A stretch of DNA of 44,120 bases from Paracoccaceae bacterium (GTDB lineage: Bacteria; Pseudomonadota; Alphaproteobacteria; Rhodobacterales; Rhodobacteraceae). The stretch's first letter is position 1, and each line of letters begins with the position of its first letter. A program made the translations under genes and the position numbers. Shown here in pieces: positions 1-7,218 of the stretch. The notes beneath the pieces were generated by a model. The model was not told the DNA's origin and ran no database searches. It saw only the letters and a program-made list of their open reading frames with translations. The DNA lies in NCBI GenBank assembly GCA_015487335.1, contig WFPZ01000017.1, forward strand, positions 1 to 44,120, given 5' to 3'.

Positions 1-48
1 CGGATTGCAAATCCGTGTACACCGGTTCGATTCCGGTACTCGCCTCCA
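1..48 (+). tRNA. tRNA-Cys(GCA), 3' portion (5' part lies outside the window)
   Basis: Anticodon stem-loop CGGA/UUGCAAA/UCCG with GCA at 7-9. T-arm ACCGG-TTCGATT-CCGGT at 21-37. Acceptor 3' strand 38-44, discriminator U at 45 (typical of tRNA-Cys), encoded CCA at 46-48. Confidence 0.85.
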
Positions 49-108
49 AACATTTCAAGGACTTGGCGGACGGGCAGCACGCGAAGGGCGGATGTTTTCA
101 CATCCGTT

Positions 109-657
109 TTCACGTTTCCCGGTTTGGTCACATGCACTGATGAAGAACCGCAGCAGGCTGATCGTGCAGGGCAACCTGACCCGGGCCGACGGCCATGCCG
201 AACGGCGCGCGGCAATGGAGATATCCACCGCCATTCTCCCGCTCGACAAGGCGGCCGACCTTGGGTGCGGACAAGGGCCATGACGCCGCCGGGTCCATCG
301 CCGAACCTCGGCAGGCCTGCGTGACCCCGCATGTCGCAAGAAAATCGCACCACCCGGCACAAGGGCTATGGGCTGTCTTTGAAACATCGCAAGAGGACCG
401 AGGAAGCCTTCGGCCGGGCCAGGACCGTCGGCGGCATGGCCCGGACCGTCTATCACGGGCTTGAGCGCGTCCGAGCCCGCTTCATCCTGGCAATGGCTGC
501 CGACAATCTTGCCCGATTGCCCCGATTGCTGGCAGCGTGAAGCCAGGAAAACTGCCCAGGAAAGCATGACCTTCCCGCAAACGGGCGGATGCCCGCAGAA
601 GCCTGGCTTCCGAAGGAAAACGGTTCTGGCTGCGAGACTTTTTCGGTAGCCTGTCAA
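109..657 (+). mobile_element. Decayed IS5-family DDE transposase remnant (5'-truncated, at least two frameshifts)
   Basis: Consecutive pieces of one transposase C-terminal half lie in three + frames. They are HALMKNRSRLIVQGNLTRADGHAERRAAMEI (ORF 5..283), LGADKGHDAAGSIAEPRQACVTPHVA (ORF 195..464) and RTTRHKGYGLSLKHRKRTEEAFGRARTVGGMARTVYHGLERVRARFILAMAADNLARLPRLLAA (ORF 331..540). No N-terminal half is present. The right boundary near 657 is a guess. Family assigned from memory of IS5-type transposases. Confidence 0.65.
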
Positions 658-742
658 GTTAAGGGGCAGGCCTCGGCCTGCCCCAATGGTGTGGATCTTT
701 CACCTTATCGCGGGAAAGACCACGCCGCTTCTTCTGCTAGGA
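658..742 (-). ncRNA. Candidate tracrRNA (anti-repeat, small nexus-like hairpin, terminator hairpin)
   Basis: Minus-strand RNA 5'-UCCUAGCAGAAGAAGCGGCGUGGUC pairs over 25 bp with CRISPR repeat nt 11-35 (minus orientation). The only two differences are G.U wobbles. UUUCCCGCGAU then pairs with repeat nt 1-7 across a UUU/UUU loop. A sigma-70-like promoter lies upstream and a GC hairpin at 663-684 downstream. The ends are estimates. Confidence 0.75.
663..684 (-). terminator. Terminator hairpin at the 3' end of the tracrRNA candidate
   Basis: ggggcaggcctcggcctgcccc forms a 9-10 bp GC stem. On the minus strand it is followed by TTAACTT, a weak U tract. Confidence 0.55.
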
Positions 743-747
743 ATTGT

Positions 748-777
748 ATTGTAAGCTGACGTCCAATGATTTTTCAA
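748..777 (-). promoter_or_regulatory. Sigma-70-type promoter for the tracrRNA candidate
   Basis: Minus strand reads TTGAAA (777-772), an 18-nt spacer, then TACAAT (753-748). A second overlapping TACAAT lies at 748-743. The predicted start falls at the first anti-repeat nucleotides (~742). Confidence 0.6.
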
Positions 778-795
778 GCCTGGGCAGCTGTCACG

Positions 796-3700
796 ATGTA
801 TCGCTTTGCATTTGATCTGGGGTCCGGCTCACTCGGCTGGGCCGTATTCAAACTCAACGAAAGACAAAAACCCACACAGCTTGTTGACATGGGCGTGCGG
901 ATATTCCCGACCGGTCGCGATCCCAAGTCGAAAGAGTCCAATGCCGCTGGTCGCCGACAACCTCGCCAGCAGCGGCGTCAGATCGATCGGCGCAAGAAAC
1001 GGCGGCAGCGGCTTGAAGAACAGCTGGTGTCGGCGGGGCTGATGCCTGCCAGGGACAGGCCGGAGGAGCGCGCCGCCTTTTTTGCCATCGATCCTTATCA
1101 AGCGCGCCAGCGTGTGGCTCAGGAGAAATGCTCCTTGTATGAGTTGGGACGCGCCATCTGGCACATCTCGAAGCATCGGGGATTCAGGAGCAATCGAAAA
1201 ACCGATCGTGCCAACGAGGAAGAAAGTGGCAAGATCGCCCCTGCTGCCGCTCAGCTCCGCGAACGATTGGCTCAGGAAGGCGCTCCGACCTATGGGGTGT
1301 GGCTTGCAAGACGCCATATGGCGGGCAAGCCGGTGCGCATACACCTGGGTAACGACAAGGGGTATGATTTCTACCCCACGCGCCAGATGCTGGAGGACGA
1401 GTTCGATCATATCTGGCGCGTGCAGGCCCGCCACCATCCGAACCTGACCGACGAAAAGCGCGACGCCATCCGCGACACGCTCTTCTTCCAGCGCCCGCTG
1501 AAGCCGGTCCAACCCGGGCGCTGCACCTTCTTTCCCGAGGATTTCCGCCTGCCAAAGTGGCATCCCCTGGCACAGGAGTTCGTCATTCTCCAGCAGCTCA
1601 ACTCGCTGCGCATCCTTGGCGAAAGCGGCGAACGGGCGCTCGAGCCAACCGCGCGCAACCTGGTCGCCCGACACCTCATGGCCGGCAACAAGCTGACATG
1701 GAAGGGCTTGCGCAGGCTTCTGAAACTGCCCATGGATACCGAGATCAATCTTGAACGCGGCGGACTCAAGGCGCTTGCCTGCAACCAGACTGTCGCCCGA
1801 ATGCTGGGCACGAAGCGCAAGCCGGGACCGCTGGCCGAAAACTGGGACAGCTGGGACGAGGCCCAAAGGCTGCGCCTGCTGGAAATCCTTGATGCCGCTG
1901 AAACCCCTGAAGAGGCCGTTCACCGCCTGATGAATGAATGCGGGCTTGAGCGCGAAACCGCCGCGGCAGTCGAAAAAATCCCCCTGCCCGAGGGCCATAT
2001 CATGCTGGGCGAGCGGGCGGCACGGGCGATCGTGCAGGTGATGCGCGAAGAGGTGATCGTCTACAGCGACGCGGTGCGCATGGCCGGCGAACGCGGCCTG
2101 TTCGGCGAAGGCGCCGTGATCCACCATTCCGATCTGCGCCCCCAGGATGACCCGGGTCTTGACCGCCTGCCGCGCTACAACGAATTGCCAGCGCTTCAAC
2201 GGATGATCGGCACCGGCACGGGCAACCCGGAGGACCCGCCCGACATCCGTTTCGGACGGATCGCAAATCCGACCGTGCACATCGCGCTCGGCCAGTTCCG
2301 GAGGGTGATGAATGCGCTGATCGAGCGCTACGGCAAGCCCGCGCAGGTGGTCATCGAGACCACCCGAGACATGGCGAAATCGGCGCGCGAACTGAACGAG
2401 ATCGAGCGCACGATCAAGGCCAACACGAAGCGTAACGACACATGGCGCGCCGAATTGGAAGCGGCGGGCATTGTCGCCCCGGGCCAACGCATGGGCGATC
2501 GGCTCTTGCGCATGCGCCTGTGGGAAGAACTGGGCCAGACCCCGGCGGACCGCCTGTGCCCTTATTCGGGGCGCCCGATCTCGCTCCATCAGCTTCACTC
2601 CGACGACGTGGAGATCGACCATATCCTGCCCTTCGAGGATACCTTCGACGACACACCCGCCAACAAGACGGTCTGCTTCCGCTCCGCCAACCGCATCAAG
2701 GGCAAGCGCGCGCCCGGCGACGCATGGAGCGACGATGAACTCGTCGCCATCATCGACCGGGTGAAGGCCGCGCCCGGCATGAGGCACAAGCTCTGGCGTT
2801 TCCTGCCCGATGCGCTCGAAAAATGGCAGGAGCAGAAGAGCTTCGAGGATCGGCAACTGCATGCCACCGGCTATCTGGCCCGCGTGGTGCGCGCCTATGC
2901 CGAGGCGCTTTTCCCCAGGGACGGCACGTCGAACATCTGGATGCCCGTGGGGCGCATGACCGCCATGATGCGCCGCCGCTGGGGCATATACCTGCCCGAT
3001 CACAACGCCAAGACCCGCGACGACCACCGCCATCACGCGCTGGATGCGGCGGTGATCGGGGTGATCGACCGGCGCATGATCCAGCAGCTTCAGACCTACG
3101 CCCGCCAGATCGGCGCAGAGGAGCTCGACCGGGTGCTGCCCGCCCCACCCGAGCCGTTCGAGGGCTACCGCGACCAGGTGATGGAACGGGTGCGGCGCGT
3201 GCAGGCCAGCCACCGCCCGGACCATTCCGCCAGCGGCCGCCTGCACGAAGACACCGCCTATGGGCTGATCCGCGATGTGCCCGAGAACCAGGCCGCGCGC
3301 ACCATCGGCAATCTGGTTGTGCGCAAGCCGGTCATCGCGCTGACCGCCAAGGAGATCGGACAGGTGCGCGACGAGAAGATCCGCGAAGAGTTGCTGCGCG
3401 CCACCGAAGGGCTGCGCGGCGACAGGAAGAAGCTGGCCGAGGCGCTCGCGACGTGGAGCGAAAAGAGCGGCCACCGGCGGCTGAGGATCATCAAGCCCGC
3501 CGAGAACGCGCGCCCTGTGCGCGATGCACAAGGCCGCCCCTACAAATGGCTGGTCCCGGATGGGATCGCATGGATGGACATCCTCGAAGCCCCTGACGGC
3601 AGATGGTTCCACCACGCCACCGATATCTGGGCGGCACAGTCCGGAAATGCGCGCGACTGGCGCACGGAATACCCTGATGCCCGTTTCATCATGCGGCTCT

Positions 3701-3981
3701 ACAAGAACGACACGATCCAGCTGTTCGATCTGGGCGATGACGGCAAGCCGATCGAGGGCAACAACAGGATCAAGCGCGTCGTCCGGCTTGAGCCGAGTGC
3801 AAATCGGATGCGTCTCGTCGGGGTCAATGAGGCCGGCGAATACGACAAGCGCCACAATGACCCGGACGATCCCTTCCGCTGGGACTTCGCAACCATCTCG
3901 ATACTGAAGGCCCGTCGTGCCCGCCGCGTTCGGATCGACGAAACGGGCCGGGTGCGGACCATCCCGCACGGTAGAAACTGA
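796..3981 (+). CDS. cas9: Cas9, type II-C (1061 aa from ATG 796; alternative ATG at 766)
   Basis: RuvC-I MYRFAFDLGSGSLGWAV. Arg-rich bridge helix RRQPRQQRRQIDRRKKRRQRLEEQL. HNH motif DVEIDHILPFEDTFDDTPANKTVCFRSANRIKGKRAP. RuvC-III DDHRHHALDAAVIG. Followed by cas1-cas2 and a CRISPR array, with no csn2 or cas4. Confidence 0.95.
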   Translation: MYRFAFDLGSGSLGWAVFKLNERQKPTQLVDMGVRIFPTGRDPKSKESNAAGRRQPRQQRRQIDRRKKRRQRLEEQLVSAGLMPARDRPEERAAFFAIDPYQARQRVAQEKCSLYELGRAIWHISKHRGFRSNRKTDRANEEESGKIAPAAAQLRERLAQEGAPTYGVWLARRHMAGKPVRIHLGNDKGYDFYPTRQMLEDEFDHIWRVQARHHPNLTDEKRDAIRDTLFFQRPLKPVQPGRCTFFPEDFRLPKWHPLAQEFVILQQLNSLRILGESGERALEPTARNLVARHLMAGNKLTWKGLRRLLKLPMDTEINLERGGLKALACNQTVARMLGTKRKPGPLAENWDSWDEAQRLRLLEILDAAETPEEAVHRLMNECGLERETAAAVEKIPLPEGHIMLGERAARAIVQVMREEVIVYSDAVRMAGERGLFGEGAVIHHSDLRPQDDPGLDRLPRYNELPALQRMIGTGTGNPEDPPDIRFGRIANPTVHIALGQFRRVMNALIERYGKPAQVVIETTRDMAKSARELNEIERTIKANTKRNDTWRAELEAAGIVAPGQRMGDRLLRMRLWEELGQTPADRLCPYSGRPISLHQLHSDDVEIDHILPFEDTFDDTPANKTVCFRSANRIKGKRAPGDAWSDDELVAIIDRVKAAPGMRHKLWRFLPDALEKWQEQKSFEDRQLHATGYLARVVRAYAEALFPRDGTSNIWMPVGRMTAMMRRRWGIYLPDHNAKTRDDHRHHALDAAVIGVIDRRMIQQLQTYARQIGAEELDRVLPAPPEPFEGYRDQVMERVRRVQASHRPDHSASGRLHEDTAYGLIRDVPENQAARTIGNLVVRKPVIALTAKEIGQVRDEKIREELLRATEGLRGDRKKLAEALATWSEKSGHRRLRIIKPAENARPVRDAQGRPYKWLVPDGIAWMDILEAPDGRWFHHATDIWAAQSGNARDWRTEYPDARFIMRLYKNDTIQLFDLGDDGKPIEGNNRIKRVVRLEPSANRMRLVGVNEAGEYDKRHNDPDDPFRWDFATISILKARRARRVRIDETGRVRTIPHGRN

Positions 3982-4048
3982 AGGGGGCGGAGGCAGTCAC
4001 TGAAGCACAGGCCAACCTGTCGGGCCTCATCCATTTGAGGAGGTCAGG

Positions 4049-4963
4049 ATGGTTGGACAGATACTGGAACTCACGCGCATGGGGCTGTCCGTGCACAAGC
4101 GCCGCGGCTTTCTGGCCGTCGATGCCGAGGGGCGGGAGGCGGGGCGCCTTGGCCTTGACGACATCGAGGCGGTCCTGGCCGCAAGCCCCGGCGTGATGTG
4201 GTCAAACACCGCGCTTGCCGAACTGGCGGCGCGCGCGGTCCCGGTCATGATCCTGGGCCACAACTTCACCCCGGTGGCCGTTGTGTTGCCGCTTGCAGGC
4301 CACCACGCACAAGGCGAACGTTTCCGCGCCCAGGCCGCCGCGTCGCGCCCGCTGCGCAAACAGGCCTGGGCTGCCATGGTGCGCCACAAGATCGCCGCCC
4401 AGGCCGAGGCGCTCGAGCGGGTCGGGGCTCCCTCCGAGCGGCTGCGCCGGCTGACGATGGCCGTGCGCTCGGGCGACCCTGACAACCGCGAGGCCCAGGC
4501 CGCCCAGGCCTACTGGCCGCTTCTCATGGGCAGGGACTTTCGCCGCGACCGCGAGGCCGAAGGCGCCAACGCATTGCTCAACTACGGTTATGCCGTGCTG
4601 CGCGCCGCCACCGCGCGCGCCATCGTCGCCGCCGGGCTGCACCCTTCCCTCTCCCTGCACCACCGCTCGGGCGGCGACGCGCTGGCGCTGGCCGACGATC
4701 TGATGGAGCCCTTCCGGCCAACCATCGACCTTGCCGTTTGCAGGCTTGTGCGAGGCGGCATCACCAGCGTCGGGGAGGCTCGCGAAGAACTGATCGCCTG
4801 CCTCAATGCCGATTTTCCGACGAAGAATGGTGCGACGCCGCTATCGCACGTGCTTCTCTACCTCGCCCGCAGCCTGGCCACTTCCTTTCTCGACCGCAAG
4901 TTGCGGCTCGATTTCCCGTCCCGCCCGCTGCCGGACGAAGTCGGGGGCACGGCCAATGGCTGA
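4049..4963 (+). CDS. cas1: Cas1 integrase (304 aa)
   Basis: Position between cas9 and cas2. Motifs NALLNYGYAVLRA and GLHPSLSLHHRSGGDALALADDLMEPFRP. SD GAGGAGG lies upstream of ATG 4049. Confidence 0.93.
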   Translation: MVGQILELTRMGLSVHKRRGFLAVDAEGREAGRLGLDDIEAVLAASPGVMWSNTALAELAARAVPVMILGHNFTPVAVVLPLAGHHAQGERFRAQAAASRPLRKQAWAAMVRHKIAAQAEALERVGAPSERLRRLTMAVRSGDPDNREAQAAQAYWPLLMGRDFRRDREAEGANALLNYGYAVLRAATARAIVAAGLHPSLSLHHRSGGDALALADDLMEPFRPTIDLAVCRLVRGGITSVGEAREELIACLNADFPTKNGATPLSHVLLYLARSLATSFLDRKLRLDFPSRPLPDEVGGTANG

Positions 4964-5303
4964 ACGTTACACGCAACTGTCGGGGTATCGGATCATGTGG
5001 GTCTGGGTCCTTTTCGATCTGCCCGTTGGCACGAAGGCCGAGCGCAAGCGGGCCACGCGGTTTCGCAACGACCTTCTCGATCTTGGGTTCGAGATGGTCC
5101 AGTTTTCGGTATACTTGCGCCATGCTTGGAGCCGGGAGAAAGCCGAATCATATGCGCGCAAGGTTGGCGAATGCGTGCCCCCCTCTGGCCATGTTCAGGT
5201 GCTGTTCTTCACCGACAAGCAATATGCGCAGAGCAAAGTCTATCGCGGACGAGCGAAACCGCAATCACCGGACGAAAAACCGCGCCAACTTGCGCTTTTC
5301 TAA
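4956..5303 (+). CDS. cas2: Cas2 (115 aa)
   Basis: MAERYTQLSGYRIMWVWVLFDLPVGTKAERKRATRFRNDLLDLGFEMVQFSVY is a typical type II Cas2 N-terminus. Its ATG overlaps the cas1 stop (ATGGCTGA). Confidence 0.9.
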   Translation: MAERYTQLSGYRIMWVWVLFDLPVGTKAERKRATRFRNDLLDLGFEMVQFSVYLRHAWSREKAESYARKVGECVPPSGHVQVLFFTDKQYAQSKVYRGRAKPQSPDEKPRQLALF

Positions 5304-5345
5304 ACATTTCCTGGCCGGAATCTCGATGCTGGATCCCAAGAAAAT

Positions 5346-5372
5346 CCCCGCGCAACAATGGGTTGCGCGGGG
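5346..5372. terminator. 11-bp perfect hairpin between cas2 and the array
   Basis: ccccgcgcaac-aatgg-gttgcgcgggg. The plus strand continues TTAATCC. The minus strand continues ATTTTCTT, the better U tract, which fits termination of a minus-strand array transcript and also the end of the cas operon. Confidence 0.7.
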
Positions 5373-5375
5373 TTA

Positions 5376-5939
5376 ATCCTAGCAGAAGAAGCAGCGTGGC
5401 CAAACCCGGACTACCTCCGGTGCTTCGTCGACGAGGGTGAGATCCTAGCAGAAGAAGCAGCGTGGCCAAACCCGGACGACCAGTCCATGCTCAAGCTCCC
5501 GGCAGTCATCCTAGCAGAAGAAGCAGCGTGGCCAAACCCGGACATAATCGGCCACGAACGCAGGAACCTCGGCATCCTAGCAGAAGAAGCAGCGTGGCCA
5601 AACCCGGACATAATCGCGCGGCGTCCACTGCGCCCGTCCATCCTAGCAGAAGAAGCAGCGTGGCCAAACCCGGACTATCGGGAGCAGCAGTTGCGCGCGA
5701 ACCGTATCCTAGCAGAAGAAGCAGCGTGGCCAAACCCGGACATGGGCCATGGTCATACAGGGAACGCAGGGATCCTAGCAGAAGAAGCAGCGTGGCCAAA
5801 CCCGGACGTCGTTCAGGCTGTCCCTGGTCGAGACGTCATCCTAGCAGAAGAAGCAGCGTGGCCAAACCCGGACCTCTTGAGGGCGAACTTGACCTTGCCC
5901 TCGATCCTAGCAGAAGAAGCAGCGTGGCCAAACCCGGAC
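5376..5939 (-). CRISPR. CRISPR array: 9 identical 36-nt repeats, 8 spacers of 30 nt (transcription strand inferred as minus)
   Basis: The repeat (plus strand) ATCCTAGCAGAAGAAGCAGCGTGGCCAAACCCGGAC occurs at 5376, 5442, 5508, 5574, 5640, 5706, 5772, 5838 and 5904, an exact 66-nt period. Orientation is inferred from the tracrRNA wobble pattern and the flanking terminator. Confidence 0.97.
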
Positions 5940-6135
5940 TGGGCTCAGAAGCCTAATGCGCGCGCCCTCAAACTCAAAAATGCAGGATAGGCTTCACCTA
6001 ACCCCGTCTCGCTCTAACTGACCCGCAGCAACAGCTGTGTCACCGACTGCTCGGAATCTGCCAGTCAGGTCAGCCTGCTCGCCTCCTGCTCCTCACAGAA
6101 AGTGAATCACTGCCGGTCAGAGATGGAAATCCCGC

Positions 6136-7218
6136 CTATCCGGCCTGTTCCCCGACCTGCGCACCCCACCTTTCCAGCACGTCCTCCGGCGTCAGCGCGC
6201 CCTCTTCGCCGCGCGCCCGGGGCGGCGTGCGCGACAGGCGCGGGGCGGGGTTCGGGCCGTGCGGGCCGAACACGTCTCGCGCCCGCATGTGCGGGGCGCG
6301 CCGGGCCTCGTCGATGGAGAGCACCGGGGTGACGCAGGCGTCGGTTCCCTCGAAGAGCGCGGCCCACTCGTCGCGGGTGCGGGTGGCGAAAACCTCGGCC
6401 AGACGGGCGCGCATGGCAGGCCAGTCGGCCACCGACATCTGCGCCGGCATGTCCACGATCCCCAGCCCCTCCAGCAGCGCGGCCCAGAACTTGCCCTCGA
6501 TCGCCCCCACCGCCACATGCCCGCCGCAGGCGCAGCGGTAGGTGGTGTAGAAGGGCGCCGCCCCGTCGAGCAGGTTGGCGCGGCGCCGGTCCGCCCACAG
6601 GCCCGCCGCGCGCAGCGAGTGGATCATCGCCGAAAGATGCGCCACGCCATCGACGATTGCCGCATCCACCACCTGCCCCCGCCCCGAGCGCGCCGCTTCC
6701 AGCAGCGCGCAAACCATCCCGAAGGCCAGGTAGATGCCACCGCCGCCGAAATCGCCCAGCAGGTTGAGCGGCACCGCCGGCTCTTCGCCGCCGATCGCGT
6801 GCAGCATGCCGGTCAGGGAAATGTAGTTGATGTCGTGCCCGGCCGTGTGCGCCAGCGGCCCCTGCTGGCCCCAGCCCGTCATGCGCCCGTAGACCAGCCG
6901 CGGATTGGCCTCCAGCATCTCGTCGGGGCCCAGGCCGAGGCGCTCCATCACCCCCGGGCGCATGCCCTCGATCAGCCCGTCGGCCCGGGAAATCAGGGCG
7001 CGCGCCGCCTCGCGGCCTGCGGGCGATTTCAGGTCCAGCTCCACGAAGCCCCGGCCCCGGTTGAGGATGTCCACCTCCTGAGGGATCAGCGGCCGCGCGC
7101 CGGGGCGCTCGATGCGCACCACCTCGGCGCCGAAATCGGCCAGGGTCATGGCGGCAAAGGGCGTGGGGCCGAGCCCGGCGATCTCGACGATCCTCACCCC
7201 CGTCAGCGGCCCGCTCAT
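6136..7218 (-). CDS. Family III CoA-transferase (CaiB/BaiF; alpha-methylacyl-CoA racemase-like), 360 aa
   Basis: N-terminus [40 protein letters not shown] and the internal [11 protein letters not shown] motif are typical of this family. Confidence 0.8.

Follow-up and report, generated by a model that had tools for sequence, protein, structure and literature searches.

The stretch analysed here (hereafter the window) comprises 44,120 nucleotides (nt) of contig WFPZ01000017.1 of a Paracoccaceae bacterium (assembly GCA_015487335.1, positions 1 to 44,120 of the forward strand). Positions 1-6200 hold a minimal cas9-cas1-cas2 locus and a CRISPR array, without csn2 or cas4. As there is no fourth cas gene, the layout is that of type II-C. 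Here, we focus on a small unit on the minus strand directly upstream of cas9, a candidate gene for the trans-activating CRISPR RNA (tracrRNA), the small accessory RNA on which all Cas9 systems depend. The locus is composed as follows:

131 to 661, plus strand: remnant of an IS5-family insertion sequence (IS), 5'-truncated and frameshifted, with the right inverted repeat at about 634-661.
655 to 742, minus strand: predicted tracrRNA transcript, with a length of 80 nt if counted up to the hairpin end at 663 and of about 85-88 nt including the tail.
796 to 3981, plus strand: cas9, encoding 1061 amino acids (aa), with matches to Pfam HNH_4, RuvC_III and Cas9_a and to TIGR01865 (534 bits).
4049 to 4963, plus strand: cas1, matching the type II NMENI model.
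4995 to 5303, plus strand: cas2 (start codon provisional), with the Cas2 domain inside the open reading frame (ORF) 4806-5303.
5346 to 5372, minus strand: strong intrinsic array terminator with an 11-bp stem and AUUUUCUU, 4 nt past the last repeat in the minus direction.
5376 to 5939, minus strand as the predicted CRISPR RNA (crRNA) sense: CRISPR array of nine identical 36-nt repeats and eight spacers of 30 nt.

The ORFs of cas9, cas1 and cas2 are intact, and the array begins 73 nt after cas2. On the plus strand, the repeat reads ATCCTAGCAGAAGAAGCAGCGTGGCCAAACCCGGAC. The start of cas9 is placed at 796 and not at the in-frame ATG at 766 (30 nt upstream) according to the N-terminus MYRFAFDLG, which is invariant in 12 orthologues.

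Judged from its sequence, the minus strand of 655-742 is very probably the tracrRNA gene of this type II-C CRISPR-Cas9 system, transcribed divergently from cas9. Such a unit is an ordinary and expected type II-C component and leaves the understanding of type II systems unchanged. In the direction of transcription, its promoter and parts are predicted to be:

777 to 748, minus strand: promoter-like site TTGAAA-N18-TACAAT, the predicted tracrRNA promoter.
742-740, minus strand: predicted start of the tracrRNA.
742 to 718, minus strand: anti-repeat (upper stem), 25 bp with repeat nt 11-35 in minus orientation, two G.U pairs included.
717 to 715, minus strand: 3x3 internal loop (the "bulge" between lower and upper stems), UUU opposite UUU of the repeat.
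714 to 707, minus strand: lower stem CCCG(C)GAU, pairing with repeat nt 1-7 (GUCCGGG), with G1:U as first pair and one bulged C.
706-705, minus strand: AA junction.
704-693, minus strand: nexus hairpin GG-UGAAAGAU-CC.
684 to 663, minus strand: 3' GC hairpin, a terminator stem of 9-10 bp, GGGGCAGGC(C)-GAG-(G)GCCTGCCCC.

From the end of the lower stem onward, the minus strand thus reads ...CGAU-AA-GGUGAAAGAUCC..., and the tail 3' of the GC hairpin is UUAACUUG, with four U in eight positions.

The minus strand of 742..718 reads TCCTAGCAGAAGAAGCGGCGTGGTC and is identical to the plus-strand repeat at 23/25 positions. Within the 44,120 bases, it is the sole match to the repeat outside the array with three or fewer mismatches (0 expected from shuffled sequences), and blastn-short returns it with an E-value of 3.7e-6 and the next match with 0.22. 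A first-pass annotation of this DNA had proposed that the minus-strand candidate pairs with repeat nt 11-35 over 25 bp and that two G.U wobbles are the only deviations from Watson-Crick geometry. This pairing is seen in the fold. RNAcofold, the check which that annotation had suggested, and duplexfold recover the predicted 25 bp, followed by the 3x3 loop and a stem of 7 bp in which one C is bulged, for the minus-strand repeat and candidate, with a hybrid energy of -61.8 kcal/mol. The further claim that the whole 36-nt repeat is engaged holds for the UUU/UUU loop and the CCCG(C)GAU pairing, but it overstates the duplex, in which 32/36 nt are paired and U36 is unpaired. When both strands of the window are scanned for duplexes over their full length, the anti-repeat ranks first, and the next unrelated site reaches -46.9 kcal/mol (background mean -24.1, standard deviation 5.4). 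A second anti-repeat between cas9 and cas1 or beside the array is ruled out by the match, blastn-short and duplex scans.

TTGAAA-18-TACAAT is the top promoter-like site (10/12) in a promoter scan of 1-6200, and both this site at 777-748 and the GC hairpin at 684-663, named in the first-pass annotation as the borders of the unit, are present. The distance of 19 nt given there between the end of the -35 box and the cas9 ATG at 796 is likewise correct, with the start codon backed by the N-termini of the orthologues. The anti-repeat lies 54 nt upstream of cas9, and the candidate RNA (93 nt) folds with a z-score of -4.5. Anti-repeats are mostly located upstream of cas9 in types II-A and II-C (Chylinski et al., PMC3737331). 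The order of a 5' anti-repeat and a 3' distal region has been used to orient type II guide RNAs, in which the nexus follows 1-3 nt after the hybrid; the lower stem usually begins with G:U, with the spacer-adjoining nucleotide of the repeat paired and a bulge or loop between lower and upper stems, the II-C nexus junction is A or AA and the nexus stem usually begins with G (Faure et al., PMC6546382). The window follows these rules with G1:U707, the AA junction and the nexus GG, and the unit is therefore read as a standard tracrRNA. Its anti-repeat lies outside the array and next to a cas9 locus that has one, a 5' anti-repeat is combined with a 3' nexus, and the unit has a predicted promoter of its own.

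The proposal of a minus-strand tracrRNA divergent from cas9 is borne out by comparison across related loci. A Cas9 profile search with one genome per species yields 80 loci, and a metagenome scan with Cas9 yields five loci, three of which are useful close relatives. Of the 60 loci whose array can be detected downstream of cas9, 48 have their best match to the repeat, the array itself excluded, on the strand opposite to cas9 and 50-410 nt upstream of it. Most loci without a resolved array carry the same downstream motif upstream of cas9. In all, about 60 related cas9 loci agree in the position and strand of the unit, among them those of Ruegeria alba (L003), Paracoccus pacificus (L002), Palleronia sediminis (L005) and Azospirillum brasilense (L012). 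Its order is also shared: a 5' anti-repeat, a mismatch loop of 2-3 nt (at the same place in most related loci), a short lower stem, the A-rich junction in ...GUUAACAAG, a small hairpin corresponding to the nexus, the linker CACCAnAU and a GC hairpin that is usually followed by a U run. The motif after the anti-repeat can be written as ...CCGUUAACAAG-hairpin-CACCAnAU-GC hairpin-U run. The window clade differs from the distant alphaproteobacterial loci at the 5' end of the repeat (GUCCGGG instead of GUUGCGG) and in the lower stem with its junction (CCCGCGAUAAGG instead of CCGUUAACAAG). One tracrRNA architecture and position is thus common to a large alphaproteobacterial type II-C clade.

Repeats and anti-repeats of these loci are matched to each other. 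Native hybrids have a mean energy of -50.8 kcal/mol and non-native ones of -24.8 kcal/mol; the native repeat is the best partner in 35/51 loci and among the top three in 43/51. The tracrRNA of the window pairs slightly better with the repeats of two relatives (L082 and L003) than with its own, hence the window repeat has gained a C-to-U change (in the crRNA sense) that is tolerated as G.U. As a separate observation, four loci carry extra repeat-like copies upstream of cas9 near the tracrRNA gene, in the orientation of the array repeat (L050 at about 5660-5800, L073 at about 5790-5816, L020 and L023). These could be a mini-array or an element resembling the small CRISPR/Cas-associated RNA (scaRNA).

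The ten closest sequences (the window, L001, L081, L082, L084 and L002-L006) have Cas9 orthologues of 53-84% identity. Among them, the unit is near-invariant over its full extent, starting with the anti-repeat's first base and ending with the final base of the hairpin stem, and both flanks have diverged. In the upstream flank, only cTTG and TAnnnT hold their position, and L081 presents a promoter-like TTGAAA-17-TATAAT. All stem cells in the alignment of the ten (100%) are standard pairs, with compensatory double changes in two hairpin pairs. The GG/CC of the nexus is invariant in this set and the nexus loop is variable. Among 30 distant relatives, 9/11 pairs of nexus and terminator covary, and the equivalent nexus stem is CG in 19, GC in 5, UG in 4 and AU in 2. 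Upstream of the anti-repeat, minus-strand promoter scores of at least 9/12 occur in 29% of 48 loci as compared to 0.9% of controls (Mann-Whitney p = 1.6e-15).

Which strand is transcribed had been deduced in the first-pass annotation from the two substitutions in the 25-bp stem, which are both G.U on the minus strand and both A/C on the plus strand. For the window alone this argument is weak: two transitions are both G.U on one strand with a chance of about 1 in 4, and one of the two wobbles adjoins the internal loop. A strict count over 48 loci, limited to mismatches flanked by three matches on each side, gives 8 G.U on the minus and 7 G.U on the plus strand. We do not take this count as a refutation of the wobble argument. 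It is too restrictive, as adjacent and loop-proximal mismatches are dropped, and it was replaced by a comparison of energies. In 36 of the 49 loci that differ, the minus/minus hybrid is the more stable one (binomial p = 0.0014, with loci that are not independent), and the clade of the window favours it by 7-15 kcal/mol. Moreover, when the upper stems of the eight closest array-bearing loci are compared, seven of them together show 16 mismatches that are G.U on the minus strand, none that is G.U on the plus strand and no transversion, and L004 as the eighth has one of each kind. Within the close clade, the core GCGGCGTGGTC of the anti-repeat hardly changes and the repeats drift. The wobble argument thus stands for the close clade and by energy, and the locus provides a worked example of when the reasoning that G.U picks the strand is reliable and when it is not. 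What really fixes the minus strand, as far as sequence can, is the architecture with its 5' anti-repeat and 3' nexus and hairpin, the conserved promoter, the TAnnnT motif of the repeats, the array terminator and the protospacer flanks.

The array itself appears to share this orientation. On the minus strand, each repeat contains TTGGCC-N16-TGcTAGGAT, an extended -10-like element, at its 3' end. A TAnnnT motif at the 3' end of the repeat is found in 48/58 distinct repeats in minus orientation as compared to 1/58 in plus orientation, and the alphaproteobacterial type II-C arrays agree with the window in orientation and in this motif. An array terminator hairpin is also present in L081 (6545-6575), where compensatory changes convert GCGC/GCGC into ACAC/GUGU and a U6 tail follows. 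A terminator facing minus-strand transcripts would keep them from running antisense into cas2. These features fit an array that would be transcribed on the minus strand from repeat-embedded promoters, opposite to the cas operon.

Two spacers have plausible protospacers. Spacer 4 (5610-5639) matches the IMG/VR viral contigs L088 (1366-1395) at 29/30 and L089 (1781-1810) at 28/30, and the single mismatch to L088 is located at the end distal to the protospacer adjacent motif (PAM) for a minus-sense crRNA. Spacer 7 (5808-5837) matches the integrase gene of Roseobacter phage RDJL6 (L087, 41-70) at 27/30, with mismatches at 3-nt intervals as expected for third codon positions. The flanks on the 3' side for a minus-sense crRNA, CAGCATCTGG and CAATATCCGG, are identical at 7/10 positions although the two protospacers are unrelated, and the opposite flanks at 3/10; the two protospacers hint at a PAM of the N4ATC type. 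A blastn search of the array against phages and plasmids gives one plausible match (spacer 7) and two that resemble chance, and exact-seed scans of IMG/VR with the eight spacers return matches for spacer 4 only. Spacers 3 (5544-5550) and 4 (5610-5616) share their first seven bases, ATAATCG on the plus strand, at the PAM-proximal end for a minus-sense crRNA, which may be chance or reflect related targets.

Taken as a tracrRNA gene, the unit would function as follows. A sigma-70-like promoter (777..748) would direct transcription from the first bases of the 36-nt anti-repeat, and the RNA would then run through the AA junction, the small nexus hairpin and the GC-rich 3' hairpin. By analogy to type II biology, the repeat of the crRNA (5'-GUCCGGGUUUGGCCACG...) would anneal to the anti-repeat in a 7-bp lower stem, the 3x3 loop and a 25-bp upper stem, with the first lower-stem pair (G:U) adjoining the spacer. 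Cas9 would bind the lower stem, the loop, the nexus and the 3' hairpin. Cleavage of the long upper stem by RNase III should be possible but, as in Neisseria meningitidis, might not be needed. The dual RNA would direct Cas9 to DNA with a PAM 3' of the protospacer.

The unit is bordered on its 3' side by the IS5-family remnant. IS5-family transposase genes from Paracoccus and its relatives share 70-76% identity with window 131-555; the ORF 331-540 matches the C-terminal end of DDE_Tnp_1_6, and the frames upstream are broken. An intact copy on a Paracoccus plasmid has terminal inverted repeats of 26 nt, the right one ending 123 nt past the stop codon. This right inverted repeat aligns to window ~634-661, which places the IS end 2-5 nt from the hairpin base at 663. 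The earlier notion that the remnant ends a few nt beyond the tracrRNA terminator is thus correct. The left end of the remnant is missing. Window and L081 (CCCCTTATTCTTGGG) share CCCCTTA, after which the window diverges into the IS end, and the window is the only one of the related loci in which an IS5 end stands where the U-tract would be. The tail UUAACUUG differs accordingly from UUAUUCUU in L081 and GUUAUUUUC in L001. An IS5-family element appears to have inserted later at the TTA that immediately follows the hairpin, and its end took the place of the native U-tract. Inside the remnant, 402-488 on the plus strand matches the Bradyrhizobiaceae small RNA family BjrC68 weakly (20.5 bits as compared to a gathering score of 39, E 0.078), which is probably a chance match of a GC-rich hairpin.

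Several results weigh against reading 655-742 as the tracrRNA gene of a working system. A covariance model of the 3' module, built from the 30 distant relatives, ranks 661-708 on the minus strand at the top of the 44-kb window with 11 bits and an E-value of 0.49, which is not significant alone; the score is low because the clade of the window has diverged in the lower stem and junction (GUCCGGG/CCCGCGAUAAGG as compared to GUUGCGG/CCGUUAACAAG). An Rfam scan of 1-6200 with E-values up to 10 finds no family overlapping 600-800 and elsewhere yields a truncated tRNA and sub-threshold chance matches only. This is not disqualifying, because tracrRNAs have been described as a family without conservation of sequence or structure (PMC3737331). 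A terminator scan does not call the GC hairpin at 684..663, because the IS insertion replaced the U-tract and left the weak tail UUAACUUG. The argument from the PAM side is built on two protospacers only, one of them at 27/30. Furthermore, cas9 lacks a GGAGG ribosome-binding site: relatives have GGAGG 5-8 nt before the ATG, and the window has GGGCAGCTGTCACG. Together with the abutting IS remnant, this could mean that the locus is decaying despite intact parts. A genuine tracrRNA gene in an impaired or silent locus, in which IS5 took the U-tract and upstream sequence and cas9 lost its Shine-Dalgarno sequence, would account for the altered tail, the IS end so close to the stem and the missing GGAGG. 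However, the three cas ORFs are intact, the nine repeats do not differ from one another, no other site in the region matches a promoter better and the hairpin is untouched, and the 29/30 protospacer in a viral contig suggests fairly recent activity. We consider such impairment unlikely.

The two other explanations deny the unit its role altogether and fare worse. If both RNAs came from the plus strand, transcription of the cas operon would continue into the array, and the stretch complementary to the repeat would be part of a plus-strand transcript, such as the cas9 leader, that pairs with plus-sense repeats. As the array follows cas2 on the same strand, read-through is conceivable; a strong hybrid also forms between the two plus-strand sequences (-50.6 kcal/mol), and in 13/49 related loci the plus/plus hybrid is even slightly more stable. 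Yet the anti-repeat on the plus strand leads straight into cas9 without a nexus or terminator, and the promoter scan finds no plus-strand promoter-like site in 1-6200. The conserved promoter, nexus and hairpin are all on the minus strand, the TAnnnT at the repeat end exists in minus orientation only, and the terminator after the array faces minus-strand transcripts, which makes a plus-strand origin extremely unlikely. An orphan degenerate repeat, left by decay or recombination of the array and giving rise to no functional RNA, with a promoter and hairpin at its flanks by coincidence, is hardly more credible and in our view very unlikely. Anti-repeats of tracrRNAs are thought to derive from degenerate repeats (PMC3737331), and the adjoining IS remnant shows that the region was rearranged. 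However, the whole 80-nt unit and not its flanks is near-invariant among orthologous loci as divergent as those above, its stems carry compensatory changes, its position and strand are kept in ~60 loci, and with no other anti-repeat in the window the system would be left without a tracrRNA. The minus-strand tracrRNA gene thus remains the preferred reading.

For cas9 itself, a convincing plus-strand promoter in 600-796 was found neither by the scan nor by eye in the aligned relatives. The anti-repeat contains a plus-strand copy of the -10-like element of the repeat, TGCTAGGAA, which was considered as the cas9 -10 box and rejected as its final T is missing. Throughout the close clade, the gap from the tracrRNA start to the cas9 ATG measures only about 50 nt, and the tracrRNA promoter is located in it. 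Speculatively, and with low probability, the cas9 promoter might overlap the tracrRNA promoter back-to-back or lie inside the tracrRNA gene, and the loss of the U-tract to IS5 may here also give a 3'-extended tracrRNA. If so, an overlapping or internal cas9 promoter would couple or oppose the expression of cas9 and tracrRNA, and a 3'-extended tracrRNA would run antisense into the transposase remnant. Neither coupled divergent promoters nor an early decay of the locus would alter the identification of the unit.

Among Cas9 proteins of known structure, the best PDB matches of the window protein are compact chains of about 1080 aa, for example 6JDQ, which we take to be Nme1Cas9; the matches are distant (E ~1e-58 to 1e-64) and cover two stretches. 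The type II-C systems of N. meningitidis and Campylobacter jejuni have the same minimal cas9-cas1-cas2 operon as the window. In N. meningitidis, the promoter element of the repeat is TGCTACAAT; the element of the window is TGcTAGGAT. Repeat-internal promoters operate in both species (PMC5965381), and transcription of their arrays runs counter to that of the cas operon (PMC3737331), an arrangement which the window resembles by its sequence features. The RNA sequences of both species are unrelated to those of the window, and repeat-internal transcription and independence of RNase III are experimental findings in these two only; for the window, they would follow by analogy. The gene for the type II-A tracrRNA of Streptococcus pyogenes likewise lies upstream of the cas genes in opposite orientation; the RNA is almost perfectly complementary to the repeat over about 25 nt and has a promoter and a terminator of its own (PMC5965381). 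In contrast to our reading of the window, the S. pyogenes array is co-directional with the cas operon and RNase III is required for processing; moreover, two tracrRNA promoters give long and short forms, the locus includes csn2, and its tracrRNA has no sequence similarity to the window unit.

In practical terms, the tracrRNA gene completes the parts list for an uncharacterised Cas9 of 1061 aa from an uncultured Rhodobacterales-like bacterium. With the crRNA sense, the register of repeat and anti-repeat, the nexus and the 3' hairpin in hand, the design of a single guide RNA becomes possible, and the two protospacers offer a tentative N4ATC PAM.

The locus also has a neighbour at the very start of the window. 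Positions 1-48 hold the 3' two-thirds of a tRNA gene, truncated where the window begins (Rfam tRNA, 30.2 bits), with the anticodon loop UUGCAAA and hence the anticodon GCA (Cys). tRNA genes are a common site for acquired DNA, and the CRISPR locus with the IS remnant directly adjoins this one.

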